Positions 3,921 through 40,484 are shown, counted from the first letter of the stretch. The stretch: 64,000 nt of DNA from an uncultured Alphaproteobacteria bacterium (GCA_944393245.1 CALXZM010000003.1:103838-167837), one strand, 5' to 3'. A program made the numbers and translations. The notes: a model not told the origin generated them from the letters alone.

Positions 3921-4001
3921 TTTCTTCCCTTCTTTGTCAAAATTGTAACAAATTTTTTTTATCAAGGCAAGGTTACTTATTCATTTGTCTTTATTATATT
4001 A

Positions 4002-9185: not shown

Positions 9186-9245
9186 TATCGGGGGAATGGC
9201 CCCCATATTGCATATAATACATTTGGTATGACGAGAGAGCATAAA

Positions 9246-19444: not shown

Positions 19445-19570
19445 TACATATATATTTATAGTATGTATAATGAACCCGGCTGATATTTCAGCCGGGTTTT
19501 GTTATATAGTTTTTTTCTGGACATATAATTTGATTGTATGTTAAGATATTTTGTACAGAGAGAATTGTTC

Positions 19571-23892: not shown

Positions 23893-23937
23893 AAACCGCC
23901 CAACTGGGCGGTTTTTATTGTAATTTCCAAAATATAA

Positions 23938-23967
23938 TTGACGTACCCTGGAATTTTTGGGTAAAAT
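23938..23967 (+). promoter_or_regulatory. Sigma70-like promoter TTGACG-17-TAAAAT upstream of the invertible leader
   Basis: ttgacg(23938-43) + 17 bp + taaaat(23962-67). A near-identical promoter recurs at 39580-39609. Confidence 0.5.
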
Positions 23968-23980
23968 AAAATCGAACAAA

Positions 23981-24085
23981 TGCCTAATACAAACCAACGA
24001 TTGCATTAGGCATATTTATTTTTGTAACAATCCCGGATTTCTGCATTTTATTCTCCCCTTTCGTGCCTAATGCAATCGTTGGTTT
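23981..24085. promoter_or_regulatory. Putative invertible leader switch: perfect 22-bp inverted repeats (23991-24012 / 24064-24085) flanking a 51-bp cassette (24013-24063) that encodes RBS+ATG+11 codons. Currently OFF for the downstream gene
   Basis: rc(aaaccaacgattgcattaggca) = tgcctaatgcaatcgttggttt. The cassette is identical (51/51) to 39488-39538, where it is in the productive orientation for gene 38592-39521. Confidence 0.6.
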
Positions 24086-24983
24086 GTGTGCGGTTGTTTT
24101 GGTTGGATTTGGGGTTACATCAACCGCGCTTGGGGCGGGCTTTCGCGATGGGGGAACCAGCAGTGTGTATACATGTCAGGCACCGGGTATGGGTACTGTA
24201 ACGGGATGGGACCCAACCAATTGGTCCCAGGCACCAATTGAATATGGCGCACGCAGTGAATTAAGCAGTCAGGATGCAATACCAAATTGCAAAACAACAG
24301 AAGTAATTTCATATATATCAGATTCGCGCGTAGGCGCATCAAAGAGAAATTCTTGTGCGAAATGTAATACTGGATACCGTTTGGTATCGTATACCGCGCC
24401 ATCAATAAGACAACCCGATTGTATCGTTACATGGGAAGAATGTGAAAAGGATGAATTACCAGACGATCCCCTGGAACTGTGTCCAGATGAGTGTAAAATG
24501 TTGGGGGGCTGGATGGATGTGCCCAAACAAACCGGCCTTCAAACGCAATGTGATCCACTGGAACAAAAGTGTTTATACAGATGTGGCCCAGGTTATTATA
24601 ATGCGGCTTTATCTATTGGGACAATGTGTCAGCCGTGCCCAGATAATGTGCTATCCACATCTTGTGCTGGTGGTGCAGATTACAATTCTGTATGCTGTGA
24701 ACGTGGATATTACAGACAGACCATAACAAGAAACACATCAACTGGGCTGATAATTAGGTATAAAGATGTTACATGTCCGCGTTGTCCGTCGTTGGGTGGG
24801 GTGTATGGAACAACACCGATGAATCAGTGTGTGTCATCTATTACAGCATGTTATATTCCGGCAAATACACCAATAAAAAGCACGCCGGGAACTTATGTAT
24901 TTACCAATGATTGTGATTATTCCACGACTGCTGCTGGCACAGGTACTGTAACGCCAGTTCAGCCAGATGTGGCAAATCCATAG
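24063..24983 (+). CDS. Small secreted Cys-rich protein, family member A (306 aa). As assembled it has a GTG start and no RBS (switch OFF)
   Basis: N-terminus PNAIVGLCAVVLVGFGVTSTALGAGFRDGGTSSVYTCQAPG is near-identical to 38592-39521. 24 Cys. C-terminal ACYIPANT...GTYVFTNDCDY motif is shared by all three family members. Confidence 0.65.
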   Translation: MPNAIVGLCAVVLVGFGVTSTALGAGFRDGGTSSVYTCQAPGMGTVTGWDPTNWSQAPIEYGARSELSSQDAIPNCKTTEVISYISDSRVGASKRNSCAKCNTGYRLVSYTAPSIRQPDCIVTWEECEKDELPDDPLELCPDECKMLGGWMDVPKQTGLQTQCDPLEQKCLYRCGPGYYNAALSIGTMCQPCPDNVLSTSCAGGADYNSVCCERGYYRQTITRNTSTGLIIRYKDVTCPRCPSLGGVYGTTPMNQCVSSITACYIPANTPIKSTPGTYVFTNDCDYSTTAAGTGTVTPVQPDVANP

Positions 24984-25070
24984 TAAACAAAATAAAAATA
25001 TTTATGTGTAATTTTAGTTTGTGTAAATAATAAACCGCCCCGCATTGCGGGGCGATTTATTATGCAAATA

Positions 25071-25631
25071 TTATTTACACACAACAACCATTGCCGTGCG
25101 TAAAACAGTGTCGCCAAACATATATCCCGGTTGTAATTCATCAATAATAGTATTTGGGGCAGGTTTTGGGTTCGCGTCCGCCGGGGCGTCTGTGACCTGA
25201 ATCGCATTGTGAAATTTCGGATTCATAATTTGCCCAATCGATTCGATTTTAGTAATTCCGACCTGGGTAAATGCGTCGTTCATGGCCATTGCCATCGATT
25301 TTATGCCGTCGTCATTTGGGGAATGTTTTTGGGCGGCCTCTATGGCGTCCATGACCGGTAAAAACTTTTTGGCAACGGACATTGCACGATTGCGTGCACT
25401 TGATTCTATATCCAATGCTGCGCGACGACGTGTGTTTTCTAGTTCCGCCGCCAGGCGCAAAAATTTATCAGTTAATTCAGCAATTTGTGCGTTTAGTTTT
25501 TCTGTTTCTGATTCTGTTTCCGGCGTTTGGGTGGTATTGTCTTTATCCGCATTATCATTTGATACAGGCGTTTCATTTTTATCTGTATCTGAAACGGAAA
25601 CAGTGTCTATTTTTACGTCTTTTTCGTCCAT
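25071..25631 (-). CDS. grpE: Nucleotide exchange factor GrpE
   Basis: Acidic N-terminus, coiled-coil LAAELENTRRRAALDIESS, C-terminal IDELQPGYMFGDTVLRTAMVVV. Confidence 0.9.
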   Translation of the reverse strand: MDEKDVKIDTVSVSDTDKNETPVSNDNADKDNTTQTPETESETEKLNAQIAELTDKFLRLAAELENTRRRAALDIESSARNRAMSVAKKFLPVMDAIEAAQKHSPNDDGIKSMAMAMNDAFTQVGITKIESIGQIMNPKFHNAIQVTDAPADANPKPAPNTIIDELQPGYMFGDTVLRTAMVVVCK

Positions 25632-25704
25632 TGGTTCACCTGTTGTGTAATAGCCCCGGGAAACGCGGGATACGCGCGCGCCCCGGGTCTGTTTTAATAT
25701 AAAC

Positions 25705-26409
25705 TTATTTTACGCTGGTTATTATAGGTATGAAGTCGTCCGGTTTCAAGGATGCACCACCAACCAATACACCATCAACATTTGCAATGGACATGATGTC
25801 GGCGGCATTGTTGCCCTTTACACTGGCACCGTATAAAATGGGCGTATTATGCATTCCCATATCTGCCAATGTATCCGCAATTAATTTGTGGGCTGTTGCG
25901 ATTTCCGCCGTCGTTGGGGTTAATCCCGCCCCAATTGCCCAACGTGGTTCGTATGCAATGATAATATCGCCAGTGGTGTCATTGGGTACTGATTCACGTA
26001 CACCCGATTCGATAACAGACATTGTTTGGCCAGATTGTTTTTCATCCATCGTTTCGCCAACGCATATAATCGGGGTTAATCCAGCCGATAATGCAGATGC
26101 GGCCTTGGCATGGACAATTGCGTTCGTTTCACTGTGATATTGGCGACGTTCGCTGTGCCCGACAATAACATATTTTGCGCCGGTGTCTGCAATCATTTGC
26201 GCGGAAACTTCACCAGTATATGCGCCATGGTCGTGGGCACTGACATCCTGGGCACCCAAATTGACGCGGCCGCCGTCCATGCACAACATGGTATATGGAA
26301 CACACAAAATAACGGTGTTTTCGGTATTTATGGTTTGTAATGCTGTAATCATTTTAACCAGGTCTGTGCGTGAACCGTTCATTTTCCAATTGCCGGCAAT
26401 AATTTTCAT
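25705..26409 (-). CDS. tpiA: Triosephosphate isomerase
   Basis: IIAGNWKMNG, GHSERR, AYEPRWAIGAG, LYGASV motifs. Confidence 0.93.
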   Translation of the reverse strand: MKIIAGNWKMNGSRTDLVKMITALQTINTENTVILCVPYTMLCMDGGRVNLGAQDVSAHDHGAYTGEVSAQMIADTGAKYVIVGHSERRQYHSETNAIVHAKAASALSAGLTPIICVGETMDEKQSGQTMSVIESGVRESVPNDTTGDIIIAYEPRWAIGAGLTPTTAEIATAHKLIADTLADMGMHNTPILYGASVKGNNAADIMSIANVDGVLVGGASLKPDDFIPIITSVK

Positions 26410-26478
26410 TGAAAAATCCCCTTTTTTTCATTGATTTTTTTGATATTGTTTTGCTATGGTATCGCAAAAGGGGATTAA

Positions 26479-27891
26479 ATGCTAGAATATTTACGTAATG
26501 CGGCGGATAAACCGCTGGCAAAGATTTTGATTGGAATTTTGGCGTTTTCTTTTGTCGGATGGGGTGTTGCCGAATGGATTTTTGGTGGCAGTGCCAGTGA
26601 TACGACTTTGGTACGCGTTGGAAATTCCGATATCACAATACAGCAATTTAGTTTGGAAAAATCGCGCGAATTGGCGTTAATGACGCGTGATATGCAACGT
26701 GAAACATATGCCGATCCGGAATTAATGGATGCGCTGAATAATAATGTTTTGTCCACTTTATCGGGCCAGGCAATGGCCGATAATCGGGCGGATGATTTGG
26801 GATTCGTGGTATCGGATGCACAAATTGCACGTGAAATTCGTGAATTTCCAGAATTTCAAATAGATGGGCAATTTTCCACATACGCATTTGACAATGTTTT
26901 GATGAACAGCGGATATAGCGAGGCCGCATTCGCAGACGTTCTGCGTCGCCAGGTTTTGCGCGGGTACACATTGGGTGCGATGTCCGTGCCATTGAATGTG
27001 CCTGATTTTGCCGTAATGGCCGCATATAATGCACGATATGGGCAACGCCAGATAGATTTTGCAACTGTTGATTTTGACGATTTTGATGTTGGTACCCCAA
27101 CTGTGGAACAATTGCGGGCTTTTTATGATCAAAATCCGCACGTTGTCCCGGAACAACGTACTGTTTCATATGTTCTGATTCCGGCGGAAATGGATACACC
27201 GGACAGTTATGATGCCGCGTATGAACGCGCCATATTGGTCGAAGATGATATTATCGCGGGTGATACAATGGCTGATGCGGCGAAAAAACATGACGCAAAA
27301 TATGTTGCGCTGGGGACTTTTGATGCGGACAATCGGCCGGTGGATGAAATTTTAACCGATAAAATGATGAACCGTATTTTTGATATGGAAGAGGGTCTGG
27401 AAAGCGAACTGTTGGAAACCAAACAGGGATTTTTGATTGTGCGTGTTGATAAAATAATTCCATCGCATAATGCTGAATTTGACGCGGTGCGCGATGAATT
27501 AACCGATGGATGGCGTCGTGCCGAACAGCGCAAGCAGGCATATGTGCGTGCCAATGAATTATTGGTTGATTTGAATAAAACTGGTAATTTATCTGGTAAA
27601 AAAACTGTAACTGTTACACGTACATCGGGGGCACCATTGGATGTGTTAAGTGCGGCGTTTAATTCGCCAATCGGAAACAATCAAATTGTAAACGGAACTG
27701 ATAAGTTTTATGTATTGCATACCGAAAAAGAAATTGCCCCAACCATTGATGATAAAAAAATGGCTGATTTAAGGGCTGAAATGGAAAAGGTTTCAAATCG
27801 TGATATTGCCGTTGATTACGAATCGTTTTTAAAACGTACGTATCCGGTAAAGGTAAACGAAAAAGTATTTAACCGTTTCTTTGCACAATAA
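26479..27891 (+). CDS. ppiD: PpiD-like periplasmic chaperone (SurA-N / PPIase-like)
   Basis: N-terminus MLEYLRNAADKPLAKILIGILAFSFVGWGVAEWIFGG typical of PpiD; size 470 aa. Confidence 0.7.
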   Translation: MLEYLRNAADKPLAKILIGILAFSFVGWGVAEWIFGGSASDTTLVRVGNSDITIQQFSLEKSRELALMTRDMQRETYADPELMDALNNNVLSTLSGQAMADNRADDLGFVVSDAQIAREIREFPEFQIDGQFSTYAFDNVLMNSGYSEAAFADVLRRQVLRGYTLGAMSVPLNVPDFAVMAAYNARYGQRQIDFATVDFDDFDVGTPTVEQLRAFYDQNPHVVPEQRTVSYVLIPAEMDTPDSYDAAYERAILVEDDIIAGDTMADAAKKHDAKYVALGTFDADNRPVDEILTDKMMNRIFDMEEGLESELLETKQGFLIVRVDKIIPSHNAEFDAVRDELTDGWRRAEQRKQAYVRANELLVDLNKTGNLSGKKTVTVTRTSGAPLDVLSAAFNSPIGNNQIVNGTDKFYVLHTEKEIAPTIDDKKMADLRAEMEKVSNRDIAVDYESFLKRTYPVKVNEKVFNRFFAQ

Positions 27892-27981
27892 TAAATGTGG
27901 ATTAGTAAAATCGCCGCCCATTTGGGCGGTGTTTTTTTCATAAACTTTTATTATTTGTGAATGTATAATGTCCCCAGAATG

Positions 27982-28632
27982 AAATTGGAATCAAATGGAA
28001 TTTTAATTGCATTGCGGCCGTTGGGTGAACGTGATTCGATTGCGCGTATTTTTACGCCAGATTTTGGATTAATGTGCGGAATGATGCGCGGGGCCCAGGT
28101 CGCACGAAAAAACAGGCCATTGGTCGGGCAATTTGGTGTGGTTGCATGGAATGCGCGGCTGGATTCGCAATTGGGGGTGTTCCATTGGGATGCGGAAAAA
28201 AATATGGCTGCTGTGTTAATGATGTCGCATGAACGGTTGGGATATATGAACAGTGCATTTGCATTGATTGCGGCGATGGTGCCCGAACGTGAACAGTATC
28301 GGGAATTATATAATGAAACTTTGGATTTGTTGCTGAATTTAACAAATGATAATCCGCATGACGCGTATTTGCAGTGGGAAATTATGTTGTTGCGGGAATT
28401 GGGGTATGCGTTAAATTTGAACACGTGTTCTGGGTGTGGAACACATGCTGATTTAGAATATTTGTCGCCACGTACTGGTCGGGCGGTGTGTAAAAATTGT
28501 GCCGTACCTTATATTGGGCGTTTGTATGAATTGCCAATAAATCTGGATATTACACGTGCGTTTCTGGAACGTGTGTGCGTGGCCCAGGGAATTGATTTGC
28601 CACCGGCACGAAAAATGTTGGGGCGGATATAA
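27982..28632 (+). CDS. recO: DNA repair protein RecO
   Basis: N-terminal OB-fold region GILIALRPLGERDSIARIFT; C-terminal Cys4 zinc motif CSGCG...CKNC. Start at MKLESNG; ORF opens at 27961. Confidence 0.85.
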   Translation, partial: KLESNGILIALRPLGERDSIARIFTPDFGLMCGMMRGAQVARKNRPLVGQFGVVAWNARLDSQLGVFHWDAEKNMAAVLMMSHERLGYMNSAFALIAAMVPEREQYRELYNETLDLLLNLTNDNPHDAYLQWEIMLLRELGYALNLNTCSGCGTHADLEYLSPRTGRAVCKNCAVPYIGRLYELPINLDITRAFLERVCVAQGIDLPPARKMLGRI

Positions 28633-28710
28633 ATTGGTTCAATTTATTCCTTGCACAAAGATAATTTTTTGGGTATCGTGTTTTCGTTCAACAGATAAAG
28701 GAGAAAAACT

Positions 28711-29544
28711 ATGACTTGGACAATATTGGTTCTGGTGGTGGGTGTTCTGCTGTACCTGTTTGGCGGTATGATGCTGTCAAAGGGTGATGGTAAAAATCCA
28801 TCTGCTGGGAAAATTGTTGCAAAAAAATGCATTTCAGTGATTGCTATTATCCTGATTTCGGGCAGTATGTGCCGTTTGTATATGCCTTATTACCTGACCA
28901 CGGTAAATCCGGCAATTGTTCAGGAAATGGTTAACGGCATGCAGGCACAGCAACAGGCTGAAAAGAACAAACAGATTCGTAAATATGTTCGTTCCGAAGG
29001 CGACAAAATGATGCGTGATGCACCGGTTTTGGGTAATCGCGATGCGAAAAAGACAATTTATGTTTGGACAGACTTCTCTTGCCCATTCTGCCGTCGTGTA
29101 CATGGCGAAATCGAACGCGTATTGGCCGACCGTGACGATACACGCGTTGTGATTAAGAACTTTTCTATCCATGGGCCATTGTCTGATGCACCGGCCAAGG
29201 CCGTGATTGCAGCAAACTTGCAGGATCCTGAAAAGGCCGGTGAATTGACAAATATGTTGATGACACGCGATTTCTATACTCAGGACGACCTGAAAGACCA
29301 GGCCACATTGGCAGATAAAGTAGAAGCCAACGTTTTGAAAATGGCCGCAGAAGCTGGTTTGGATACAGAAAAATTAAAGGCTGATATGAATGGCGATGTC
29401 GTTGCACGTGAAATGCGCAATGTTCGCGATTTGGCCCAGCGTTTCGAAATCACAGGAACACCGTTCTTGATTATCGGTGAACAGGCGTTCCCGGGTGCAA
29501 TTCCTGCCGCACAAATCGAAACAGCACTGGACGAAGCAGAATAA
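28711..29544 (+). CDS. DsbA-family thiol:disulfide oxidoreductase with N-terminal membrane anchor
   Basis: WTDFSCPFCRRVHGE thioredoxin-fold CPFC active site; two N-terminal hydrophobic segments; strong AAGGAG RBS. Confidence 0.8.
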   Translation: MTWTILVLVVGVLLYLFGGMMLSKGDGKNPSAGKIVAKKCISVIAIILISGSMCRLYMPYYLTTVNPAIVQEMVNGMQAQQQAEKNKQIRKYVRSEGDKMMRDAPVLGNRDAKKTIYVWTDFSCPFCRRVHGEIERVLADRDDTRVVIKNFSIHGPLSDAPAKAVIAANLQDPEKAGELTNMLMTRDFYTQDDLKDQATLADKVEANVLKMAAEAGLDTEKLKADMNGDVVAREMRNVRDLAQRFEITGTPFLIIGEQAFPGAIPAAQIETALDEAE

Positions 29545-29668
29545 GTTCTGAAATCCTAAATGCATATTTTCAATCCCGTCCGAATCGGACGGGATTTTTG
29601 TTGTTACAACTGTAAATAATTTTATATGTGCACTATATTATATGGGCAGTTAAATAGGAGGTTTTCAA

Positions 29669-30175
29669 ATGGGGGCAATTATTATTTATTTTTCACGGGC
29701 CGGTGAAAATTGGATTGATGGCGGTATTCGTCATACGGATGTTGGAAATACGGAACGTGCCGCGCAAATTATTCACGATTTAACAGGTGCTGATTTGTTT
29801 AAGATAGAACCAGTTGTTCCGTATCCTGAAAACTATGACGAATGTACCGCGGTTGCCAAACGTGACCAGCAAACAAATGCGCGTCCAGAAATAAAATCAT
29901 ATCCGAAAGATTTAGATAAATACGATACCGTATATTTGGGATATCCCAATTATTGGGGAACAATGCCGATGGCGGTATTTACATTGTTGGACGGATGTGA
30001 TTTTTCTGGCAAAGTTGTAAAACCGTTCTGTACGCACGAAGGCAGCGGTCTGGGGCACAGTATGTCCGATGTTCGTAAAATGTGTCCAGGTGCGGATGTT
30101 CGCGACGGGTTGGCTATTGTCGGATCGGCGGCTGGCGACAGTGTTGAATCGATTCGTAAATGGTTGAATAAATAA
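29669..30175 (+). CDS. Flavodoxin-like protein
   Basis: IIIYFSRAGENW... and overall 168-aa size match the flavodoxin-like fold family. AGGAGG RBS. Hairpin terminator 30180-30207. Confidence 0.6.
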   Translation: MGAIIIYFSRAGENWIDGGIRHTDVGNTERAAQIIHDLTGADLFKIEPVVPYPENYDECTAVAKRDQQTNARPEIKSYPKDLDKYDTVYLGYPNYWGTMPMAVFTLLDGCDFSGKVVKPFCTHEGSGLGHSMSDVRKMCPGADVRDGLAIVGSAAGDSVESIRKWLNK

Positions 30176-30204
30176 AATAAAAAACGGGGTGTATACCCCG
30201 TTTT

Positions 30205-31374
30205 TTATTTGCTTTCCAGTATCGCAATGCCGGGCAGGGTGCGACCCTCTATAAATTCCAGAAATGCGCCGCCGCCGGTTGATACGTATGTTATGTCATC
30301 CTTTACACCACAGGCTGCCAGTGCGGCAACGGTGTCGCCACCGCCGACAATACTGTCCAATTTGCCGGCGCGTGTTTGTTCCGCAATTGTTTTTGCAATC
30401 GCGAATGAACCATATGACCACGTCGGTTGCCATTCCGCCATACCAACGGTGCCGTTCCAGATTACTGTTGCGGCATGACGAATGGCGTCAATGTTACGTT
30501 CGGTTGTTGCAATGCCGGCATCAATGATGATGTCGTCGTCGGCGATTTCGGTAAAGTCCTTGTTTGTGCGGGTGGCGGTCGGGGTGAATTCCTTGGCCAC
30601 GCCCTTGTCCAATGGCAACAGTACTTCGCAATTATTTTGTTTTGCGTATTCCAGAATTTCCAGTGCGGTATCTTTCTGGTCGGCTTCGAACAATGAATTG
30701 CCGACCTTGCCACCCATTGCATAGTTAAATGTTGTGCCCAATGCGCCACCGATAATCAATTTGTCGGACAGTTTGGCCAATGCCTTTAACACGCCGATTT
30801 TGGTGGAAACTTTACTGCCAGCGACAATGGATAACAGTGGGCGTTTTGGGTTTTCCATAACCGCAGTCAGATGTTCTATTTCCGATGCCAACAGTTTGCC
30901 CGCATATGACGGCAGAATTTCTGCAACGCCAACGGTGCTGGCGTGTGCACGGTGCGATACGGCAAACGCGTCATTGATAAAAATATCAAACCCGTTGGCC
31001 AGTTTTTTTGCAAATTCGGGGTCATTTTGTTCCTCGCCCTGGTAAAAGCGCACATTTTCCAACAGAACCACGTCGCCGTCGTTCATATTTTGCATAAAGT
31101 CACGATCCAGGCAGTCCGCAATCAGTGGCACTTGCATATATTCCGCAACTGGGGCCATGGTGTATTCCATATTGCGCGTGCCCTTTGGCCGGCCCAGGTG
31201 TGCACAAATTGCAATACGTGCGCCACCCGCCCGCAGGGCGTTTATCGTTGGCATACTTTGTTCAATACGAAATGCGTCGGTAATTTTACCGTCCACGATT
31301 TGTACGTTGAAATCATCGCGCAGCAAAATAAATTTGCCACGCACGTCCAGATTTTCAATTGTGCGCAGTTTCAT
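30205..31374 (-). CDS. pgk: Phosphoglycerate kinase
   Basis: 389 aa; LLRDDFNV, AHLGRP, GGGDTVAAL motifs. Confidence 0.95.
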   Translation of the reverse strand: MKLRTIENLDVRGKFILLRDDFNVQIVDGKITDAFRIEQSMPTINALRAGGARIAICAHLGRPKGTRNMEYTMAPVAEYMQVPLIADCLDRDFMQNMNDGDVVLLENVRFYQGEEQNDPEFAKKLANGFDIFINDAFAVSHRAHASTVGVAEILPSYAGKLLASEIEHLTAVMENPKRPLLSIVAGSKVSTKIGVLKALAKLSDKLIIGGALGTTFNYAMGGKVGNSLFEADQKDTALEILEYAKQNNCEVLLPLDKGVAKEFTPTATRTNKDFTEIADDDIIIDAGIATTERNIDAIRHAATVIWNGTVGMAEWQPTWSYGSFAIAKTIAEQTRAGKLDSIVGGGDTVAALAACGVKDDITYVSTGGGAFLEFIEGRTLPGIAILESK

Positions 31375-31997
31375 TTTTCCTGTATCCTTTCTTTGACGGG
31401 TTTATACGTTTTTCGATAATGTTCGTTTATACCATATTTTTCAATTGCGCGCAAATGTTCGGCGGTTGGATAGCCCGAATTTTTATCCCACCCATACATC
31501 GGATATTGTATGGCCAATTCGTGCATAATTTTATCACGCGTTTCCTTTGCAATAATTGATGCGGCGGCAATTGACAGTGATTTTGCGTCACCACGCACAA
31601 CGGCGCGCCCAGTCAAAAGTGGCGGCAACCTGTTCCCGTCAATTAAACAAAACTGGGGCGTGTGGGACAGTTTTTGTACCGCACGTGTCATTGCGGTCAG
31701 CGATGCGTTCAAAATGTTCATTTCGTCGATTTCGGTCGGACTGCATGCGCCAGTTGCCCAAATGGTGTTATGTGTTATCCAATCCAATGCGGCGGCGCGC
31801 ATATGTGGTGTCATTTGTTTGGAATCGCGAATAATAACTGGAATTTCAATGTTACGGTGCGGAAATATAACGGCCGCCGCAACAACCGGCCCGCACAGGG
31901 GGCCACGGCCGGCCTCGTCCACGCCGGCAACGATGTCAAAGCCTGTTTCGTTTTCAATATCAAATGTAGGACACGTTTTCATAGCGATTAAAACCAT
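31371..31997 (-). CDS. rnhB: Ribonuclease HII
   Basis: GVDEAGRGPLCGPVVAAAVIF active-site region; overlaps the pgk start by 4 nt. Confidence 0.92.
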   Translation of the reverse strand: MVLIAMKTCPTFDIENETGFDIVAGVDEAGRGPLCGPVVAAAVIFPHRNIEIPVIIRDSKQMTPHMRAAALDWITHNTIWATGACSPTEIDEMNILNASLTAMTRAVQKLSHTPQFCLIDGNRLPPLLTGRAVVRGDAKSLSIAAASIIAKETRDKIMHELAIQYPMYGWDKNSGYPTAEHLRAIEKYGINEHYRKTYKPVKERIQEK

Positions 31998-32226
31998 ACC
32001 ATAAATTTATGGCAAATGGAAAAGTTTTCATATATAATATATGGTGTATCAGCGCGTTGCTGGTATGGGGTATCACAACCCGATAGTACGCGTTTCGTGT
32101 GAACGAAATGAAAAGTTCTCCAATCCCGGGGTTGGAGGGTGCTGAATATCCAATAAAGCACGCTATTCGTACTAATAGTTGTGAACCTCCAACCCACCTG
32201 AAAATATTTTTAGGTGGTTTTTTATT

Positions 32227-32589
32227 ATGGGGGGATTTATGGGCGGAAAAAAACACCGGGTGTGTGAATTTGATATTTATGTTGGACGGGTTATTATGAT
32301 GCTGCGTACCCGTATGGGAATGAGCCAGCAAGATTTGGGACAACAGATAGGTGTTACTTTTCAACAGGTACAAAAATACGAATGCGGTGAAAACAGATTA
32401 ACCGTTGCGCGATTGAATGATATATGCCGGGTATTTGATGTGTCGCCGGCATTGTTTTACAATGAAGCAAACCAGTCATATGTTCATGATAAAAATATGG
32501 TGGTTTTGATAAATACAATTTATAAATTACCAACAGAAAAAAGAAATATTATTGCTGTGATTGCAAATGCGCTGTGTTCTGATAATTAA
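32227..32589 (+). CDS. XRE-family helix-turn-helix transcriptional regulator
   Basis: LRTRMGMSQQDLGQQIGVTFQQVQKYECGENRLTVARLNDICRVFDV is a canonical HTH_XRE. True start may be the internal MM at ~32293. Confidence 0.75.
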   Translation: MGGFMGGKKHRVCEFDIYVGRVIMMLRTRMGMSQQDLGQQIGVTFQQVQKYECGENRLTVARLNDICRVFDVSPALFYNEANQSYVHDKNMVVLINTIYKLPTEKRNIIAVIANALCSDN

Positions 32590-34316
32590 ATCGCCATGCG
32601 GTTGGCAATTTGTTGCTGAACATATTCGTCTTCGCTGTTGTACAGGGGCCATTCACCGTTGGCTAAATCCTTCATCGTGGTCAATGGTTGGTCCAAACGG
32701 GCACGATATAACCACAGGTTTGACATGACGCGTTTAATATAACTGCGGGTTTCGTATGTTGGGAAACTTTCGATATATAATAATGGGTCGTATGTTTCAA
32801 ACATGTTTTCAAATTCAACCAATGTGCCCATGCCAGCATTATATGCAGCCAACATTTTGATTATATTATTATTTATGTTTGGATGGGCCAACAGGTCAAC
32901 AATATACTGTTGCCCCAGGAACATATTGTGTTCCGGATTTAACATATCTATATCGGACATGTTTACTTTGTTTTCACGCGCAACACGTTTGGCAGTACTG
33001 GGCATGATTTGCATCAGACCGTTTGCACCGGCACCTGATTTTGCGTTTGTGCGGAAACCACTTTCCTGTTTAGTGATGGCCAATAACAGCGCGCGGTCAA
33101 TTGACCACCCCCCCATTGGTTCCCAATCGGGCAGGGGATATTGCGCCGAATAAATAATATTGTCATCGATTTCCAAAATACCGCGGTCTTTTATTAAACT
33201 GGACGCCTGAATCGATACACGGGGCAATCCGTATGCCGTCGCAACTGAATTAATTGCGTGCAATGTGCGGTCAGAAACCTTGGCAGTAATCATGTATTTC
33301 AGGTATTGTTCCGCGCGGTCTTTCTGGCCAACTTGTAACAGGGCCAGGGCCCTTTTGCCATATTTTGTTTCACGCAGGGTATCTATGTCATCATCGGTAC
33401 AATCCTGTTCAAAAAATTCATATTTTGGCGTGCGTCCCAACATGACCGACGACAGAGCCCCATAAAATGCCATTGGGTGTGCCGCAGCAATTTTCCAATA
33501 TTTTTTTGCGGCACTGCGATTACCGTTGGCGTCCGCCGCACGACCAGCCCAGAATGCGGCCTCGGTCTTTCTGGCGTTGTTTATTTGTTCTAAATCCAGG
33601 ATTGCACTGAAATATTTTTCACTTTCGTGATATTTTTCTTCCTTGAAATACAATAATCCCATTGCCCACAGGCCGTATTCTGATTTTGCATCAGATGCGA
33701 CAAATCCCCATTTTTTCGCCAATTCAAATTCACCGTTCGTATAATATATAAATGATAAACGTCCCGCCAAACGGCCATAGTCCGATTCGGTCAGGCTTTT
33801 TTTCAGGGCGGAATCTTCCAGTATTAAACGGGCTGTTTTTGTTGCGCCACTGCGGATTGCGCGCTTGAATTTTGTAATTTTTGTGTTCGTGGCACCAGTA
33901 TATTTTTTTTCCGTCCAATTTTCAGATTGGGGTGTTTCAATTGATGCGCCACCGCTGATTGTACGGGGAACGGATGCCTTGCGAACGGTTGCCTGTTTTA
34001 TTTTGGCCAGTTTTGCCATGCGTTCCGCACCAGGCATATCATAATATTTTTCCATCCAAGATACCAATTCGCGGCCACGGGTGCGATACGTTTTGGATAT
34101 AAAGCGTTGGTATAAAACCTCGTTCATCAGTAATGGATCGGACAGTTGCTTTTCCAGTTTTTGTGCCGCGGAAATTTCTTCTTCGCTTTGCAGCAGGAAT
34201 ATTTGAGTGTACAAACTGGCGTCCGCATCAGACAGTACATTGATATCAGGCCGATCCGCGGCAATCGCCATAAACGGCAAAAATATTGCTATTAAAAATG
34301 TGAAGATTTTTTTCAT
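32586..34316 (-). CDS. slt: Soluble lytic murein transglycosylase
   Basis: Signal peptide MKKIFTFLIAIFLPFMAIA; superhelical TPR-like N-domain; C-terminal SLT motif ITKQESGF...GANGLMQIMPSTA...AYNAG. Confidence 0.9.
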   Translation of the reverse strand: MKKIFTFLIAIFLPFMAIAADRPDINVLSDADASLYTQIFLLQSEEEISAAQKLEKQLSDPLLMNEVLYQRFISKTYRTRGRELVSWMEKYYDMPGAERMAKLAKIKQATVRKASVPRTISGGASIETPQSENWTEKKYTGATNTKITKFKRAIRSGATKTARLILEDSALKKSLTESDYGRLAGRLSFIYYTNGEFELAKKWGFVASDAKSEYGLWAMGLLYFKEEKYHESEKYFSAILDLEQINNARKTEAAFWAGRAADANGNRSAAKKYWKIAAAHPMAFYGALSSVMLGRTPKYEFFEQDCTDDDIDTLRETKYGKRALALLQVGQKDRAEQYLKYMITAKVSDRTLHAINSVATAYGLPRVSIQASSLIKDRGILEIDDNIIYSAQYPLPDWEPMGGWSIDRALLLAITKQESGFRTNAKSGAGANGLMQIMPSTAKRVARENKVNMSDIDMLNPEHNMFLGQQYIVDLLAHPNINNNIIKMLAAYNAGMGTLVEFENMFETYDPLLYIESFPTYETRSYIKRVMSNLWLYRARLDQPLTTMKDLANGEWPLYNSEDEYVQQQIANRMAI

Positions 34317-34324
34317 ATGTTTTT

Positions 34325-34825
34325 TCAAAATAGTGATGTTTTCGGCAGTGCGCATACATTGGCGTTGTCGTCATCCGCAGGAATTTGCGCCAATATTTTT
34401 TTGAAATCCGAAATGCGCGAAAATTTACGATATACTGATACAAAGCGCACAAATGCAATCGGATCCAGGTTTAATAATGAATCAGAAACCATTTGACCAA
34501 CCATTGCGCTGGTTACCGTATCGTCGGCGGTTTCTGTTTCCAGTCTGCGGTGTATGGATGTTACCAATTTTTCAATCTGTTCGTCGCCAACATCGCGATT
34601 GCGACACGCCAATTTAATACTGCGACGTAATTTTTCGCGGTCAAAGGCCTCTAACTTTCCACTGTTTTTACGCACCATCAGGTCGCGCATTTGAACGCGT
34701 TCGACGGTTGTAAATTTTGCCCCGCATTGATTGCATACGCGACGACGCCGAATAATGGCGTCTTCGGTATCTGGGCGGGAATCGGTCACCCGACTGTCAG
34801 TAGAGTTACAATATGGACATCTCAT
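34325..34825 (-). CDS. nrdR: Transcriptional repressor NrdR
   Basis: Start moved to MRCPYCNSTDSRVTDSR (zinc ribbon) followed by an ATP-cone. The ORF-track N-extension overlaps slt. Confidence 0.9.
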   Translation of the reverse strand: MRCPYCNSTDSRVTDSRPDTEDAIIRRRRVCNQCGAKFTTVERVQMRDLMVRKNSGKLEAFDREKLRRSIKLACRNRDVGDEQIEKLVTSIHRRLETETADDTVTSAMVGQMVSDSLLNLDPIAFVRFVSVYRKFSRISDFKKILAQIPADDDNANVCALPKTSLF

Positions 34826-35001
34826 ACCCATATACGGTAGCAAGCAAAAACCCAACTGTAAAGTAGAAAGTGATTTTCGCCCCATTGGGTAAAAAATGCG
34901 TTTTTTATAAAAATCAAGCACTTTATTTATATGCAAATCACTGGGGTGAACTTTTTAATGGGGTCGTTTTGTGATAAAATGTAAATCGAGACCAGAGAGA
35001 G

Positions 35002-36102
35002 ATGGAAAAATACCTGAACCAGATTTTAACCGGCGATTGTGTGGATGTTATGCGCGGAATACCAGATGCATCGGTTGATGCGGTATTCGCAGATGCGCCG
35101 TATAATCTGCAACTGGGGGCAAAAACGCTGTATCGCCCCGAAGATCAAACCGCGGCGCGTGCCGTGCGTGATGCGTGGGATGCATTTGAAAGCCCCGCCG
35201 CGTATGACGAATTTACACGTGCGTGGTTGACCCAGTGCAAGCGGGTGTTGAAACCTGATGGTGCATTGTGGGTTATCGGCAGTTATCATAATATTTTCCG
35301 GGTGGGGGCTATTTTACAGGATTTAGGCTTTTGGATTTTAAATGATATTGTATGGGTGAAAACAAATCCTATGCCGAATTTCCGTGGAACGCGGTTTACG
35401 AATGCGCATGAAACGCTGATTTGGGCAACCCCGCGTAAAACAGGCAAGTACACATTTAATTATGAAACAATGAAAAAACTGAACGGTGGCAAGCAAATGC
35501 GTTCAGATTGGAATATAAATATTTGTCTGGGCGAAGAACGGGTCAAGGGCGCAAATGGCAAAAGTTTACATAATACGCAAAAACCATTGGATTTATTGCG
35601 TCGGGTGATTTTGGCATCAACCAAGCAGGGTGATGTTATTTTAGATCCTTTCTTGGGCAGTGGCACAACCGCCGCCGCGGCCAAGGAATTGGGGCGTAAT
35701 TTTATCGGTATTGAACGCGAAGAATCATATGTTTCTGCGGCGCGTGCGCGTGTCGATGCGGTGACACCGATTGATTTATCACAGATAGAAGTTGCCACCC
35801 CAAAACGGGCCGAGGTCCGCGTTGCGTTCAAGGAACTGATAGAAGCAGGCCTGTTGTATGTCGGACAAACGTTGGTCAGTCCGCGTGGCGAACGTGTGAT
35901 GATTACGCGCGATGGCCAGTTGGCGCATTCTTTGCATGGCAAGGCGTCAATTCACGTTATGGCCGCGCGTCTGCAACACAGTGTCAGTTTTAATGGTTGG
36001 GATTATTGGTCGGCTGAAAAGCGCGATGGTTCATTGGTTCCAATTGATGAATTGCGCAAATATGTGCGCAGTGTAAAGCGTGATATAAAGCAGGCTGCAT
36101 AA
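35002..36102 (+). CDS. ccrM: CcrM-type N6-adenine DNA methyltransferase (GANTC)
   Basis: Near-collinear with Caulobacter CcrM: [18 protein letters not shown] (DPPY-type), [57 protein letters not shown]-terminal nonspecific DNA-binding extension. Confidence 0.9.
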
Positions 36103-36124
36103 AATAATCAATCTGGATTGATTG

Positions 36125-36508
36125 TTATCTGGTGCGTTTGAATAAATTTATCAATTTATTTCCGATTTTGTTGTAATGTTTTTGATATGCAATATCCATG
36201 GCGGATTGTATGGTGCGGCCGTTGCGTGACATTGATATGTGCATTTGGGCGTCGGCGCAATCTGATTCCAGTGCCAGAATTTCGCTGTGTAATTTATGGG
36301 CGTCTGTGATTGCCTGGGTCCGTGTTTGCATATCGTATACCGTGGCAATCATGTCCAGATTATAAAAATAGTGCGGTTTGGGCATCAGGTTGCACCCAGA
36401 ACGTGCAAAATCATATATTTCAGTACGCTGATTTATCGCACGGGTCGTTTCATTTTGTAAACGTGCATATTCCAGAATATAAAAACCGTTTGTGTGCTCG
36501 TTTTCCAT
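36125..36508 (-). CDS. Hypothetical protein (127 aa)
   Basis: Clean ORF between ccrM and clpP. No family recognised. Confidence 0.4.
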   Translation of the reverse strand: MENEHTNGFYILEYARLQNETTRAINQRTEIYDFARSGCNLMPKPHYFYNLDMIATVYDMQTRTQAITDAHKLHSEILALESDCADAQMHISMSRNGRTIQSAMDIAYQKHYNKIGNKLINLFKRTR

Positions 36509-36674
36509 ATTAATATAAAACCTTTTATTAACAAGTATATGTCAAAAATAATATTTGTCAATATTTGATAGTGGCCTTGTATTTTTGTTATATGGGATTA
36601 TATATATCATAAATTCGCGAATCGGGTTTTTGTGTGATATAGTTTTATTTGTAATAAAGTAAGGGATTTATATT

Positions 36675-37256
36675 ATGGCTTTGATACCTGTGGTTATAGA
36701 GGAATCACCCCGTGGTGAACGTTCCTTTGACATATATTCCAGATTATTGCGCGATCGAATTGTCATGATAAACGGTCAAATTGAACCAAATATGGCAAGC
36801 ACGGTTGTGGCACAGTTGCTGTTTTTGGAATCAGAAAATCCAAATGCAGAAATTTCTGTTTATATAAATTCGCCCGGGGGTGATGTTTCTGCGGGGTGGG
36901 CCATTATGGACACAATGCAGTATATTAAATCGCCCGTTTCAACAATTGGTATGGGGTTGGTTGCGTCAATGGGATCGGTGCTGTTGGCCGCGGGTGAAAA
37001 GGGCAAGCGTTTCGTTCTGCCAAATACACAAATTATGATACATCAGCCATTGGCCGGGGCCGAAGGTCAAATTACTGATATGGAAATCCGTATGGCACAG
37101 TATTTGAAAAACAAGAAAACATTGATAAAACAAATGGCTGCCTTTACCGGACGTAAAGAAAAAGAATTGTTTGACGCAATGGAACGCGACAATTGGATGA
37201 CGCCTGACGAGGCCAAAGATTTTGGCCTGATTGACGGTGTATTACAGCGTAAATAA
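36675..37256 (+). CDS. clpP: ATP-dependent Clp protease proteolytic subunit
   Basis: [37 protein letters not shown] (Ser), IMIHQP (His). Confidence 0.95.
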
Positions 37257-37287
37257 TTTTATCCGTTTTTGTGGGGGATTATTGGAC

Positions 37288-38562
37288 ATGAGTGACGATA
37301 AAACAAAATCTGCTGATGAAGCACAGGCAACCACGCCACCACAATTTTGCAGTTTTTGTGGCAAAGCAGTGTACGAGGTTAAAAAACTGGTCAGTGGACG
37401 CAATGTTTGCATTTGTGACGAATGCATAAATTTATGTAATGACATAATGGCCGATGATATGCGGACGGAAATGGGTGGGGATACGGCAAAATTACCAACC
37501 CCGCACCAGATTTACGATTTCCTGAATGAATATATCGTGGGCCAGGACAGTGCCAAAAGGACACTGGCGGTGGCGGTATATAATCATTATAAACGTCACA
37601 GTGTTGCTGAAAATACCAAGGTTGAAATACAAAAATCAAATGTGTTATTGATTGGGCCAACGGGTACCGGGAAAACACTGTTTGCGCAAACATTGGCGCG
37701 TATATTGGACGTGCCGTTTGCAATTGCGGACGCAACCACCCTGACCGAGGCCGGATATGTCGGTGACGATGTGGAAAGTGTTTTAACGCGTCTGTTGCAA
37801 AATGCGAATTTTGATGTTGAACGTGCCGGGCGTGGAATAATTTATATTGACGAAATTGATAAAATCGCCCGTAAATCTGAAAATCCATCACTGACACGTG
37901 ATGTTTCCGGCGAAGGTGTCCAACAGGCATTGTTAAAACTGGTCGAAGGCACCGTTGCCAACGTGCCGGCCGGCGGGGCGGGGCGCAAGCACCCGGGCGA
38001 GGCCACCGTTCAATTGGATACATCAAAGATTTTATTCATTTGTGGTGGGGCGTTTGATGGCCTGAACAAGATTATTGGTGCGCGTACAAATGAACGCGCA
38101 GGTATCGGATTCGGGGCAAATGTTCAATCCAAAAAGGAACGTGAATCTAAAAACTATTTGGACGATGTTCAACCCGAAGATTTGGTTAAGTTCGGTATTA
38201 TACCGGAATTGGTTGGGCGGTTGCCAGTTGTAACAACTTTACAGGATTTAGACGAAGATGCGTTGGTAAAAATTCTGACCGAACCCAGAAATGCAATTGT
38301 AAAGCAATATTCCGCCATGTTGGAAATGGATGGTGTTAAATTGACAATTACAGATGATGGGTTGCGCGAAATTGCGAAAAAGGCCGCAGAACGTAAAACT
38401 GGGGCGCGTGGTCTGCGCAGTATTTTGGAAAAAATCTTGCTGCAACCGATGTTTGATGCCCCGGACAAGGATGATTTAATCGAAATCGTTATCGACAAGG
38501 ATGTTGTTGCCGGGCGTAAACCGCCGGTTGAAATATTACGCGATGCGAAAAAGGTTGCATAA
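37288..38562 (+). CDS. clpX: ATP-dependent Clp protease ATP-binding subunit ClpX
   Basis: Start at MSDDKTKS (GGGGGA RBS). C4 zinc finger CSFCGK...CICDEC; Walker A GPTGTGKT; IGF-loop region. Confidence 0.93.
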
Positions 38563-38591
38563 AAAATCGGGGCGAATGCCCCGATTTTTTA

Positions 38592-39521
38592 TTATTCATC
38601 TTCGGTATAATTACACTTTTGGGTAAACTGGAATGTGCCTTCGGTCATACGTATACTTGTATTCGGGGGTATATAACACCTGGTTATATGCGATGGTGTC
38701 GGTGCAAACATTGGACATTCTAGCAGGGTTGTCCCATATACCAAGGGAAGACCTATCCCAATTGATGGACAACGCAAACAATCATAATCCTTGGCGCGGA
38801 CCCCCGTTATTCCACCACCGGATTCAACGTAATTATTATCTATTAAATAATATCCAACATCACAACATGGCATAATCGTACCGGCAGGACAACCGTCCAT
38901 AGTATGATCTGGACACGCCTTGCAATTTGGTCCAGAACCGGCTACCATCATACCACCTGCATTATAATAATTGGATTTACATTGATATTCGCATTTGTTG
39001 GTGCTGGTGTTACAACGTGTTTGATAATTTTTACCGCTAACATTCATCCAGGATGTTCTACCCTCGCACGCCAGACCATCGCATGGGGTGTCCTTTACAC
39101 ATTCTTCCCATGTAACAATACAGTCCTGTTGTCTTTGTGACGGCATTGTGTGTGATACCAAATGGTATCCAGTATTACATGCAGAACATGTATTACGTTT
39201 GCCCCCACCAGACATCATCCCACCGTTGGGTTTCGCATAATATTCTATGGTTGTTGTTGTTTTACAATTTGGTATGGGATCGTCACTGGCCAAATCACTT
39301 TGTCCGACATATCCATCGACTGGTACCGACCAATCTGTTGTGTCCCAACCCACCATGGTGAAGCCGGGATCCTGGCACGTATAAAAACTGTCCGTTCCCC
39401 CATCGCGAAAGCCCGCCCCAAGCGCGGTTGATGTAACCCCAATTCCAACCAAAACAACCGCACACAATTGAACGATTGGATTAGGCATATTTATTTTTGT
39501 AACAATCCCGGATTTCTGCAT
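38592..39521 (-). CDS. Small secreted Cys-rich protein, family member B (309 aa). Leader cassette in ON orientation
   Basis: GGGGAG RBS + ATG inside the 51-bp cassette (39488-39538) gives MQKSGIVTKIN then MPNPIVQLCAVVLVGIGVTSTALGAGFRDGG, near-identical to the 24063 gene. 30 Cys. C-terminal RCYIPPNT...GTFQFTQKCNY. Confidence 0.7.
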   Translation of the reverse strand: MQKSGIVTKINMPNPIVQLCAVVLVGIGVTSTALGAGFRDGGTDSFYTCQDPGFTMVGWDTTDWSVPVDGYVGQSDLASDDPIPNCKTTTTIEYYAKPNGGMMSGGGKRNTCSACNTGYHLVSHTMPSQRQQDCIVTWEECVKDTPCDGLACEGRTSWMNVSGKNYQTRCNTSTNKCEYQCKSNYYNAGGMMVAGSGPNCKACPDHTMDGCPAGTIMPCCDVGYYLIDNNYVESGGGITGVRAKDYDCLRCPSIGIGLPLVYGTTLLECPMFAPTPSHITRCYIPPNTSIRMTEGTFQFTQKCNYTEDE

Positions 39522-39654
39522 TTTATTCTCCCCTTTCGTGCCTAATCCAAACGGTGGTTTAAAAACAGTAAAAATATGATTGACGCACCCCAGAATTTTC
39601 GGCTAAAATAGAAACAAACAAATGCCTAATGCAAACCACCGTTTGGATTAGGCA
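39476..39654. promoter_or_regulatory. Nested putative invertible elements between divergent family genes: 12-bp IR (39476-39487 / 39539-39550) around the 51-bp leader cassette; 19-bp IR (39539-39557 / 39636-39654) around a 78-bp promoter segment
   Basis: ttggattaggca / tgcctaatccaa flank the leader. tgcctaatccaaacggtgg / ccaccgtttggattaggca flank the promoter. Hairpin tgcctaat-N16-attaggca at 39623-39654, as at 23981-24012. Confidence 0.55.
39580..39609 (+). promoter_or_regulatory. Sigma70-like promoter TTGACG-17-TAAAAT, currently pointing at gene 39670-40320, inside the IR-flanked 78-bp segment
   Basis: ttgacg(39580-85) + 17 bp + taaaat(39604-09). Homologous to the promoter at 23938-23967. 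Confidence 0.5.
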
Positions 39655-39669
39655 CGAAAGGGGAGAAAC

Positions 39670-40320
39670 ATGAAAAAATTTTTTATCATATTGGCAATTA
39701 GTGTTGGAATTATAACAAGTGCTGACGCTACGTCTACGGTATCGCCTTGTACATCGATGTTAAGGCCATACGATTGTGGTAATAATTGTTGCGCTGCAAA
39801 TGCGGCCAGTTGCAAAACGCAATGTCCAAATATAGTAATAACGGAATGCGAAGGTTTGGTATGTGAAAATAAAATGACATGGACCAATTATGGTGATCCT
39901 GGAAAGCAGATAAAGTGTAATACGGCTTCAGATACCTGTGAATACCGTTGTAATCCAGATGGTTATTACAGAACCAGTGTTGGTGGTGGTTCGGCCATGC
40001 GATGTGCAGAATGCCCAGACAATGCAACATGTTCACAAGGGACAAGTGTATGCTGTAATCAGGGACATTATCCTGTAACAAATGTTTATATGGCCCCTGG
40101 ATTGACCGGCCAGATAACAGAATATACATGTCCATCTTGTCCAGGGTATTTGCGTTATTTATCTGCAACTTCACCAGCTGGGACGTATGTGCCTGGTACA
40201 ACGGATGCCGCTTCATGCCCTGCTGCTATAGGTGCGTGTTATATCCCCAGTGGGACATATTCTGGTGATATAACTGGCAGATTTCAGCTGACTGGTAAGT
40301 GTCACTATAAAGAATCATAA
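39670..40320 (+). CDS. Small secreted Cys-rich protein, family member C (216 aa)
   Basis: GGGGAGAAAC RBS. Signal peptide MKKFFIILAISVGIITSADA. 24 Cys. Shares CEYRCNPDGYY, CAECPDN, C-terminal GACYIPSGT...GRFQLTGKCHY with members A and B. Terminator 40338-40362. Confidence 0.7.
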   Translation: MKKFFIILAISVGIITSADATSTVSPCTSMLRPYDCGNNCCAANAASCKTQCPNIVITECEGLVCENKMTWTNYGDPGKQIKCNTASDTCEYRCNPDGYYRTSVGGGSAMRCAECPDNATCSQGTSVCCNQGHYPVTNVYMAPGLTGQITEYTCPSCPGYLRYLSATSPAGTYVPGTTDAASCPAAIGACYIPSGTYSGDITGRFQLTGKCHYKES

Positions 40321-40370
40321 TATGATACATGATACAGAAATCCCCATATTATGGGGATTTTTAATTTAAA

Positions 40371-40484
40371 ATCACCCACAAAATTATACAATTTTGCGGG
40401 GCCCGACAAATCACCCACAAAATTTTGCAATTTTGCGGGGCCCGACAAATCACCCACAAAATTTTGCAATTTTGCGGGGCCCGA
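40371..40484. repeat. Tandem direct repeat, 39-bp unit x 2.9 (ATCACCCACAAAATTTTGCAATTTTGCGGGGCCCGACAA)
   Basis: Units at 40371-40409 (2 mismatches), 40410-40448 and 40449-40484 (truncated). Each contains the palindrome CAAAATTTTG. Confidence 0.85.

Follow-up and report, generated by a model that had tools for sequence, protein, structure and literature searches.

Three paralogous cysteine-rich genes in the window

The window analysed in this study is a stretch of 64,000 nucleotides from an uncultured Alphaproteobacteria bacterium (GCA_944393245.1 CALXZM010000003.1:103838-167837), and it carries three genes for small cysteine-rich proteins, here called g1, g2 and g3, together with short inverted repeats at their 5' ends that would act as DNA switches. 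An earlier reading made from the DNA alone (the sequence-only reading) had grouped the three proteins into a family, and the open reading frames (ORFs) were all present at the coordinates it had given. These are g1, as called, at 24063-24983 on the plus strand (306 amino acid residues from a GTG codon, which form the body of a 317-residue protein after the flip of the module described below), g2 at 38592-39521 on the minus strand (309 residues, with a signal peptide, an N-terminal beta domain of about 105 residues and a cysteine-rich repeat region) and g3 at 39670-40320 on the plus strand (216 residues, a short form with a signal peptide, a short cysteine-rich N-terminus and the shared repeat region). 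The identity between g1 and g2 was 54%, and the BLASTP matches of g3 to g1 (E = 3e-16) and to g2 (E = 7e-22) covered the C-terminal 140-170 residues. On these similarities, which are far above chance, the three genes are paralogues.

A hidden Markov model (HMM) of the family, searched against the six-frame translation of the window, found only g1, g2 and g3, the rest being noise. The ORF at 3210-3965 on the minus strand was rejected as a fourth member (HMM E = 0.099, with a different cysteine pattern); it encodes a predicted secreted protein of 251 residues with the signal peptide MKRTFIIPAIFALTAPGAIAA, about 12 cysteines and no Pfam match.

Cysteine makes up 7.1% of the full ORF of g1 (n = 22), 7.2% of g2 (n = 22) and 9.7% of g3 (n = 21); the share of about 8 to 10 percent proposed earlier thus fits g3 and is slightly too high for g1 and g2. 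The motif blocks said to be shared were all found, as C(E/L)Y(R/Q)C..(G/N)YY, C..CPD(N/H) and the C-terminal CYIP...G.(Y/F).(F/L)T..C.Y, with differences in detail: the first block of g2 is CEYQC/NYY and not CEYRC/GYY, and the spacing from T to G in the last block is 6 residues and not 4. An alignment of 24 family members has 22 invariant columns, mostly cysteine. The C-terminal tails of the proteins are hydrophilic (for example ...CNYTEDE and ...CHYKES). The g1 protein is identical to the database entry P0024, which is nameless in NCBI and ENA, and g2 and g3 are likewise nameless in NCBI.

Putative switch modules upstream of the genes

The divergent genes g2 and g3 are separated by a putative promoter toggle (39526-39667), in which perfect inverted repeats of 35 nt (39526-39560 and 39633-39667) surround a segment of 72 nt (39561-39632). 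Inside this segment, the promoter hexamers TTGACG-N18-TAAAAT (39580-39609, plus strand) face g3, and from this arrangement the predicted promoter module can fire toward only one of the two genes at a time. A 30-mer pattern of the promoter with degenerate positions occurs only twice in the window, here and at 23938-23967. The latter copy, with the same hexamers and spacing on the plus strand (10/12 in a consensus scan), is a fixed sigma-70-like promoter of g1.

Between this fixed promoter and g1 lies the start-codon module of g1 (23989-24087), with perfect 24-nt inverted repeats (23989-24012 and 24064-24087) around 51 nt. The 51-nt segment contains a GGGGAG ribosome-binding site (RBS), an ATG and codons 1-11 (MQKSGIVTKIN), all directed away from the gene, and the RBS motif is read from the minus strand (24051-24071); a 21-mer that includes the RBS has three copies in the window, where 0 were expected. 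Flipping the segment in silico gave an ORF of 317 residues with RBS, ATG and frame restored, and the 20 nt upstream of its ATG were those of g2. Since the true start of g1 appears to be on the inverted segment, the GTG start as called, which has neither an RBS nor a charged n-region, should be an artefact. The near-identity of the N-termini of g1 and g2, noticed in the sequence-only reading, was confirmed, although the 'MPNA...' of g1 quoted there, which is read from the GTG, comes from the inverted module. The start-codon module of g2 (39473-39553) has less perfect arms (39473-39487 and 39539-39553; 15 nt, 93%) around 51 nt and is in the ON orientation.

Judged from this anatomy, g3 would be ON in the window, with promoter, hairpin, RBS and ATG in line; g2 would be OFF, its start module being ON and the promoter facing away; and g1 would be OFF, its own promoter being present and its start module inverted. 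The sole member in an expressible configuration would then be g3.

An 8-mer core, TGCCTAAT or its partner ATTAGGCA, has seven copies in the window, all upstream of g1-g3 at the two switch regions. In the 5' untranslated region (5'UTR) of g1, a pseudo-palindromic site TGCCTAAT-N16-ATTAGGCA (23981-24012, plus strand) forms an inverted repeat that we propose to be a full recombination site and also an RNA hairpin, and a similar inverted repeat, TGCCTAATGCAAAC-CACC-GTTTGGATTAGGCA (39623-39654, plus strand), lies in the 5'UTR of g3. The latter site folds stably (-17.3 kcal/mol, z = -4.4) and leaves the RBS free. One could suppose that these elements are no recombination sites and act in the RNA alone, through a 5'UTR hairpin that controls mRNA stability or translation; all architectures seen indeed have the hairpin immediately before a free RBS. 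This supposition is extremely unlikely, because it leaves the copy of the core in the coding region, the inversion of the g1 start module and the inversions observed between contigs (see below) unexplained. The two roles are compatible, and the hairpin stands as an additional function only; the full-site hairpin may add stabilisation of the mRNA.

Natural inversions

The sequence-only reading had supposed the genes to be phase-variable, and comparison between samples did find natural variants of the same locus in both orientations, for promoter modules and for start modules. Two contigs encoding an identical g2 protein (L002 and L003) differ solely in the orientation of the 72-nt segment, with identical flanks; the promoter faces g2 in L002, and it faces g3 in L003, L100, L101 and the window. 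A second, independent inversion of the promoter segment was seen between L004 and L006, which represent a different species and a different locus. For the start module, contig L110 comes from another strain and holds the orthologous g2 locus (92% identity across 2 kb that include clpX); its 84-bp start module is the exact reverse complement of that in L002 and the window. There are thus three independent cases (L002/L003, L004/L006 and L110/L002) of two module types. By two features, inverted repeats around a promoter or a gene start and both orientations found in nature, the modules would be invertons.

Elsewhere, start modules are OFF with fixed promoters in L007, L102, L105 and L106 and ON in L104 and L005. 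In the relative from the human gut (L105 and L106; 3880-4030) and in L102 (2880-3030), the left arm of the OFF module is degenerate, for example ATTGGGCA or AAAAGTGATGG, and the switch of these loci may be locked or may recombine with a different partner. For genes in the OFF state (P0002, P0003, P0023, P0024 and P0027), gene callers report spurious GTG, TTG or ATG starts (MPN..., MHIYILPF...), so that in database entries the true start is often missing along with part of the signal peptide, which is then hidden; this is a caution for annotation. A database search with the ON-state g1 protein found only the OFF-state call, P0024.

The differences in orientation might instead be polymorphisms fixed in each strain or artefacts of assembly, with g1 and g2 decaying or silent and g3 the sole functional, constitutive gene. 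The comparisons are indeed all between samples, no recombinase was found in the window, and the degenerate arms in L102, L105 and L106 look locked OFF. We nevertheless regard this explanation as very unlikely, since it has to account for three independent and precise inversions of two module types with near-identical flanks, for inverted repeats that are perfect over 24 and 35 nt despite overlapping differently constrained sequence, and for the intact ORFs of g1 and g2. It also sits poorly with the three core copies, which co-vary (TGCCTAAT to TGCCGAAAA) in L007 and L107. As for assembly, the switch measures 142 bp in full, less than the length of a typical sequencing read, and for this reason an assembler cannot invert it on its own. 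The short contigs L101, L103, L109 and L110 stop exactly at or inside switch modules at the contig start, as would be expected if orientations were mixed within those samples. Flipping within populations by an enzyme is what we infer from these sequences.

Recombination site and recombinase

The right arm of the L110 start module is identical to the left arm of L002 (16/16), and the imperfect arms of 15-16 nt move together with the inner 51-53 nt. The crossover should therefore fall at the centre of the palindromic site and not within the best-matching repeat. For the start module, homologous exchange of the RecA type inside the repeats was rejected because the imperfect arms travel with the segment, and the predicted location of the crossover points to a site-specific recombinase rather than to RecA-dependent exchange. 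The recombination site is most likely a pseudo-palindrome of about 32 bp in which a few central bases separate an outer from an inner half-site, such as TGCCTAATGCAAACC-AC-CGTTTGGATTAGGCA. Counted by hand, the distance between site centres is 83 bp in g1 and 84 bp in the promoter module.

In this arrangement, the 'third' copy of the core in each 5'UTR would be the outer half of a full site, and the single 5'UTR site could have two alternative partners, the site inside the g2 coding region and the one across the promoter, serving as a hub for both flips. In L007 and L107 the core is changed to TGCCGAAAA in all copies together, and both core types coexist in one locus. In the toggle between two genes of L107, the core is TGCCGAAAA and the adjacent coding region retains a TGCCTAAT copy.

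No recombinase was called near the switches in L001-L007, L102, L104 or L107. As none was found in the window either, the recombinase is presumed to act in trans. The pattern of the switch site had no exact match in the JGI metagenomes.

Export of the proteins

Signal-peptide features were scored with a simple script and not with SignalP. In g3, g2 and flipped g1, the n-region has a charge of +2 and the 12-mer hydrophobic core has a Kyte-Doolittle value of 2.8-3.1, and candidate cleavage motifs are ALGA/GF in g1 and g2 and SADA/T in g3; the N-termini read MKKFFIILAISVGIITSADA/T in g3 and MQKSGIVTKINMPNPIVQLCAVVLVGIGVTSTALGA/GF in g2. The first 40 residues of g1-g3, in every form, contain no lipobox ([LVI][ASTVI][GAS]C). 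The window also encodes a DsbA-family thiol-disulfide oxidoreductase (28711-29544, plus strand; Pfam DSBA 5.2e-19, Thioredoxin_4 8.1e-18), and autotransporter and OmpA-domain proteins, suggesting that the cell is diderm and able to oxidise exported cysteines. The export proposed in the sequence-only reading is thus borne out as far as sequence features can indicate it: g1-g3 are probably Sec-exported, disulfide-rich proteins, and their location would be envelope-exposed or secreted.

Relatives, repeat homology and predicted fold

The family is real and extends well beyond the three genes in which it was first noticed. In a collection of 5.8 billion proteins there were 43 close relatives, all unnamed metagenomic proteins, and a profile search of 1.84 billion cluster representatives gave 230 relatives at E <= 1e-3, of which 49 reached E <= 1e-10. 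The relatives from the profile search are small (about 90-430 residues), and the part most broadly common to them is the extreme C-terminal 60-100 residues or so. The shortest consist of a signal peptide and a single module of about 85 residues, making stand-alone secreted proteins of about 90-100 residues.

Relatives that carry a source name are all 'hypothetical protein' of metagenome-assembled genomes (MAGs) of uncultured Alphaproteobacteria. A scan of JGI metagenome proteins found two family loci, and on the contig labelled human gut metagenome the family relative adjoins a ClpX that is about 93% identical. A scan of genome contigs with the family patterns confirmed no relative. Phage origin was rejected because neither the family nor the switch site was found in viral contigs. 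In L007 (9076-11635), the gene for P0003 adjoins T7-like phage remnants (portal, truncated terminase and Bbp19-like).

Direct Pfam assignment of g1-g3 gave nothing beyond a sub-threshold 'MSC' match in g3, and a second scan of g2 again gave no match to PF07699 (Ephrin_rec_like). Minimal members of the family, however, pass the gathering cut-off of PF07699 (23.1 bits): P0097 reaches 36.4 bits over all 48 positions of the model, and P0108 reaches 33.4 bits. The family profile recovers P0097 at E = 5.3e-9, and hhalign of this profile with a profile of minimal members of about 100 residues (including P0097) gave a probability of 99.3% and E = 1.6e-20 over the C-terminal 100 columns. Through P0097 and this alignment, g1-g3 are linked at the sequence level to PF07699 members by transitive profile homology. 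Pfam matches among 148 representatives were PF07699 (18), TNFR_ELAPOR1_6th (4), Giardia VSP (3), Furin-like_2 (1) and NCD3G (1); the three Giardia VSP matches were weak (best 4.4e-05) and under the Pfam cut-off. PF07699 is also among the precomputed labels of the relatives. A direct alignment of the family profile with the cysteine-rich region of EphA2 was weak (E = 0.32).

Matches to PF09402 (MSC, Man1-Src1p C-terminal) occurred in 16 of the 148 representatives, at about model positions 41-93 (best E = 2e-10), and in residues 93-146 of g3. These are most likely a cysteine-rich segment captured in the Pfam model and not true homology. A match of the family profile to an XkdQ-related chain among the sequences of solved structures (E = 0.0017, 48 columns) was judged to be a coincidence of cysteine pattern. 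In no profile search did g1-g3 fall into a housekeeping family, which agrees with the sequence-only reading. Within the literature searched, PF07699 or its names came up in 17 papers, all on eukaryotes.

AlphaFold models of g2 and g3 (mean pLDDT, the predicted local distance difference test score, 77.7 and 71.7, respectively) are all-beta and elongated with disordered signal peptides, and residues 1-52 of g3, including the short cysteine-rich N-terminus, are disordered (pLDDT < 50). When the PDB and BFVD libraries were searched with both models by Foldseek, the top matches, none of them significant, were mainly TNFR-superfamily ectodomains, and the best neighbours were TNFR1, CD40, TNFR2, RANK, HVEM, OX40 and the TNFR homologues of poxviruses and iridoviruses. 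From the homology to minimal members that pass the PF07699 cut-off and from these neighbours, we read the shared region as divergent ephrin-receptor-like/TNFR-like repeats; the fold of g1-g3, which the sequence-only reading had not recognised, is most likely a stack of such cysteine-rich repeats.

Phase-variable exported proteins need not form a surface coat, and g1-g3 might be soluble proteins, periplasmic or secreted, that bind ligands or act as effectors or toxins, for example as decoys of TNF-like or ephrin-like ligands of a host, as the TNFR homologues of poxviruses are, or as small, disulfide-rich proteins that antagonise other microbes. In favour of this, TNFR ectodomains that bind ligands, viral decoys among them, head the structural neighbours, g1-g3 have no membrane anchor, lipobox or beta-barrel, and the minimal members are stand-alone secreted mini-proteins of about 90 residues. 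The structural matches are non-significant, however, no secretion system or immunity gene is linked to the genes in the window or in related loci, and the mutually exclusive expression of mosaic paralogues is the signature of antigenic variation in exposed structures and not of toxins. We therefore consider this alternative unlikely.

Two distant members, P0179 and P0186, have CarboxypepD_reg-like domains joined to the C-terminal cysteine-rich module of the family, and the window encodes a protein of 899 residues with CarboxypepD_reg and OmpA domains (13255-15954, minus strand). These combinations are a hint that envelope proteins can acquire the module.

Variable gene content and neighbouring features

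The g1 cassette (23902-25044, plus strand), which comprises its own terminator half, the promoter, the switch and g1, is a strain-specific unit of about 1.14 kb bounded by the 9-bp direct repeat AAACCGCCC located in terminator stems. In the contigs of other strains with an identical GrpE (L088-L097), g1 is absent in 10 of 10, and there the gene for a 139-residue protein and grpE are separated by 40 bp.

The identity to g2 differs strongly between domains in several relatives: for P0016 it is 90% (N-domain) and 40% (C-domain); for P0020, 25% (N-domain), 81% (middle region) and 70% (C-domain); and for P0003, 33% (signal region) and 88% (C-domain). Such discordance suggests recombination between paralogues. 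In the human-gut relative, a single family copy follows clpX. On these sequence comparisons, the family is mosaic, multi-copy and variable in content. In a related strain, locus L107 (ERZ24773551 NODE_1674, 1-4400) has five family genes in alternating orientation within about 5 kb, and the promoter version of the fifth gene is decayed.

Between g3 and tRNA-Leu(CAA), three tandem units of 39 bp (40369-40484; 97% matches) each hold a hairpin scored as terminator-like on the minus strand; they are possibly a repetitive extragenic palindromic (REP)-like element or stacked terminators. Six ORFs of 595-1270 residues (19538-23350, 4002-6548, 7026-9185, 9228-11750, 15972-17759 and 50183-53437) have no Pfam match at E <= 1e-5. 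The one of 1270 residues, directly upstream of the g1 region, has by eye an ankyrin-like start and a beta-barrel-like end. The genome seems rich in uncharacterised large proteins of the envelope or of host interaction.

Interpretation

We consider it probable that the paralogues g1-g3 are Sec-exported, disulfide-rich proteins of receptor-like repeats whose expression is chosen by site-specific inversion of two kinds of modules of about 84 bp. The three proteins share about 170 C-terminal residues of cysteine-rich repeats, to which g1 and g2 add the N-terminal beta domain of about 105 residues. The start module carries the RBS, the ATG and 11 codons that form the charged n-region of the signal peptide, so that a gene whose start module is inverted would be transcribed and yet neither translated nor exported. 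A flip of the promoter module would lead to transcription of g2 or g3, one at a time. The products would be variable proteins, exposed on the envelope or secreted, and host immunity, phage or predators would put them under pressure to diversify. The sequence-only reading had cautiously offered a cysteine-rich, phase-variable, exported candidate family of surface or effector proteins, and each testable element of that proposal has held.

Several results weigh against this explanation. All orientation comparisons are between contigs of different samples or strains. No recombinase was found in the 64-kb window, either by Pfam on 20 ORFs or by tblastn with Hin and XerD queries. The central dinucleotides of the two sites around the g2 start module differ here (AC and AA), and 84 bp is short for the synapsis of a classical invertase. 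Regarding the repeats, hmmscan of g1, g2 and g3 against Pfam (E <= 1) gave no family assignment, with neither PF07699 nor a VSP match, and all Foldseek matches were non-significant (E 0.18-5; TM-scores 0.1-0.3), although low TM-scores are expected because stacks of repeats can bend. Regarding the location, neither an outer-membrane anchor nor a lipobox nor any known secretion signal was identified in g1-g3, and a Sec signal peptide by itself delivers a protein of a Gram-negative cell to the periplasm only. Finally, each mature protein has an odd number of cysteines (21).

A wider reading is possible, although we hold it as doubtful. The genes would then belong to a lineage-wide, undescribed family of receptor-type repeats in gut Alphaproteobacteria, serving as a variable coat similar to that of the variant-specific surface proteins (VSPs) or as decoys or binders of host ligands, and would be run by a new, minimal 84-bp inversion network with three pseudo-palindromic sites, one hub and an unlinked recombinase acting in trans on several loci.

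The protein family, with about 230 nameless protein clusters, would be new in bringing into uncultured Alphaproteobacteria a kind of repeat that has otherwise been described in eukaryotes and in viruses of eukaryotes, and the switch would be new in a module that moves the translation start and the signal-peptide n-region alone and in a three-site network with a shared hub. Phase-variable surface families are familiar from pathogens and gut Bacteroidota; to our knowledge, almost nothing is known of the host and phage encounters of uncultured Alphaproteobacteria in the animal and human gut. The ON or OFF state of the switch, at the sequence level, can be read directly from metagenomes, and the compact 84-bp start module may serve as a genetic part.

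Comparison with known systems

The cysteine spacing C..CP..G..GT......I..C is common to this family and the PF07699/TNFR/growth-factor-receptor repeat superfamily. In contrast, the Pfam model has nothing that corresponds to the C-terminal CYIP...G.F.FT..C.Y block or to the N-terminal beta domain, and the hosts of g1-g3 are bacterial (the named sources being MAGs of uncultured Alphaproteobacteria). The VSPs of Giardia (PF03302) are also a multigene family of cysteine-rich repeats of the same broad superfamily, of which one or a few are expressed at a time. However, g1-g3 have neither a C-terminal transmembrane helix nor the CRGKA tail, they hold two to three CxxC motifs each instead of many, and they are far smaller; by sequence, they lack the features of VSP membership. 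The switching also differs, being post-transcriptional in Giardia and by DNA inversion in g1-g3.

In the sap system of Campylobacter fetus, one promoter is on an invertible segment between opposed paralogues of surface-layer proteins. The toggle between g2 and g3 is similar in that one promoter flips between divergent paralogues, so that only one of them is transcribed, and the two transcription units have the inverted repeats as their common 5' ends. Unlike the sap segment, the module here is 72-84 bp and not kilobases long, the predicted crossover is at the centre of a short pseudo-palindrome, and the start-codon module adds a second tier of control. The site itself, with two half-sites of about 13-15 bp and a centre like ...AAACC-NN-GGTTT..., presumably resembles hix and gix. 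In contrast with the Hin, Gin and Cin systems, no invertase gene was found in the window, no enhancer was identified (no search aimed at one was made), the 84-bp segment is far below theirs in length, and the central dinucleotides do not always match; a site of a tyrosine recombinase (12-bp arms and an 8-bp spacer) may be an alternative reading.

The modules also resemble the invertons of gut bacteria, both invertible promoters and intragenic or gene-altering inversions, as known from the PhaseFinder and DeepInverton surveys (PMC11602134) and from work on intragenic DNA inversions (10.1101/2023.03.11.532203; PMC9881135). Those have short inverted repeats around a promoter or a part of a gene, occur in host-associated bacteria and typically act on exported or surface proteins. 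The majority of known invertons are under 300 bases in length (PMC11602134), so that the small size here is unusual and not unprecedented. The present modules differ in having no adjacent recombinase and in belonging to uncultured Alphaproteobacteria instead of Bacteroidota or Bacillota. The start module can be classed among partly intragenic invertons (10.1101/2023.03.11.532203; PMC9881135), and it differs from the known ones in bearing only an RBS, an ATG and 11 codons of a signal peptide and in belonging to a network of three sites, in which one 5'UTR site would take part in both flips.

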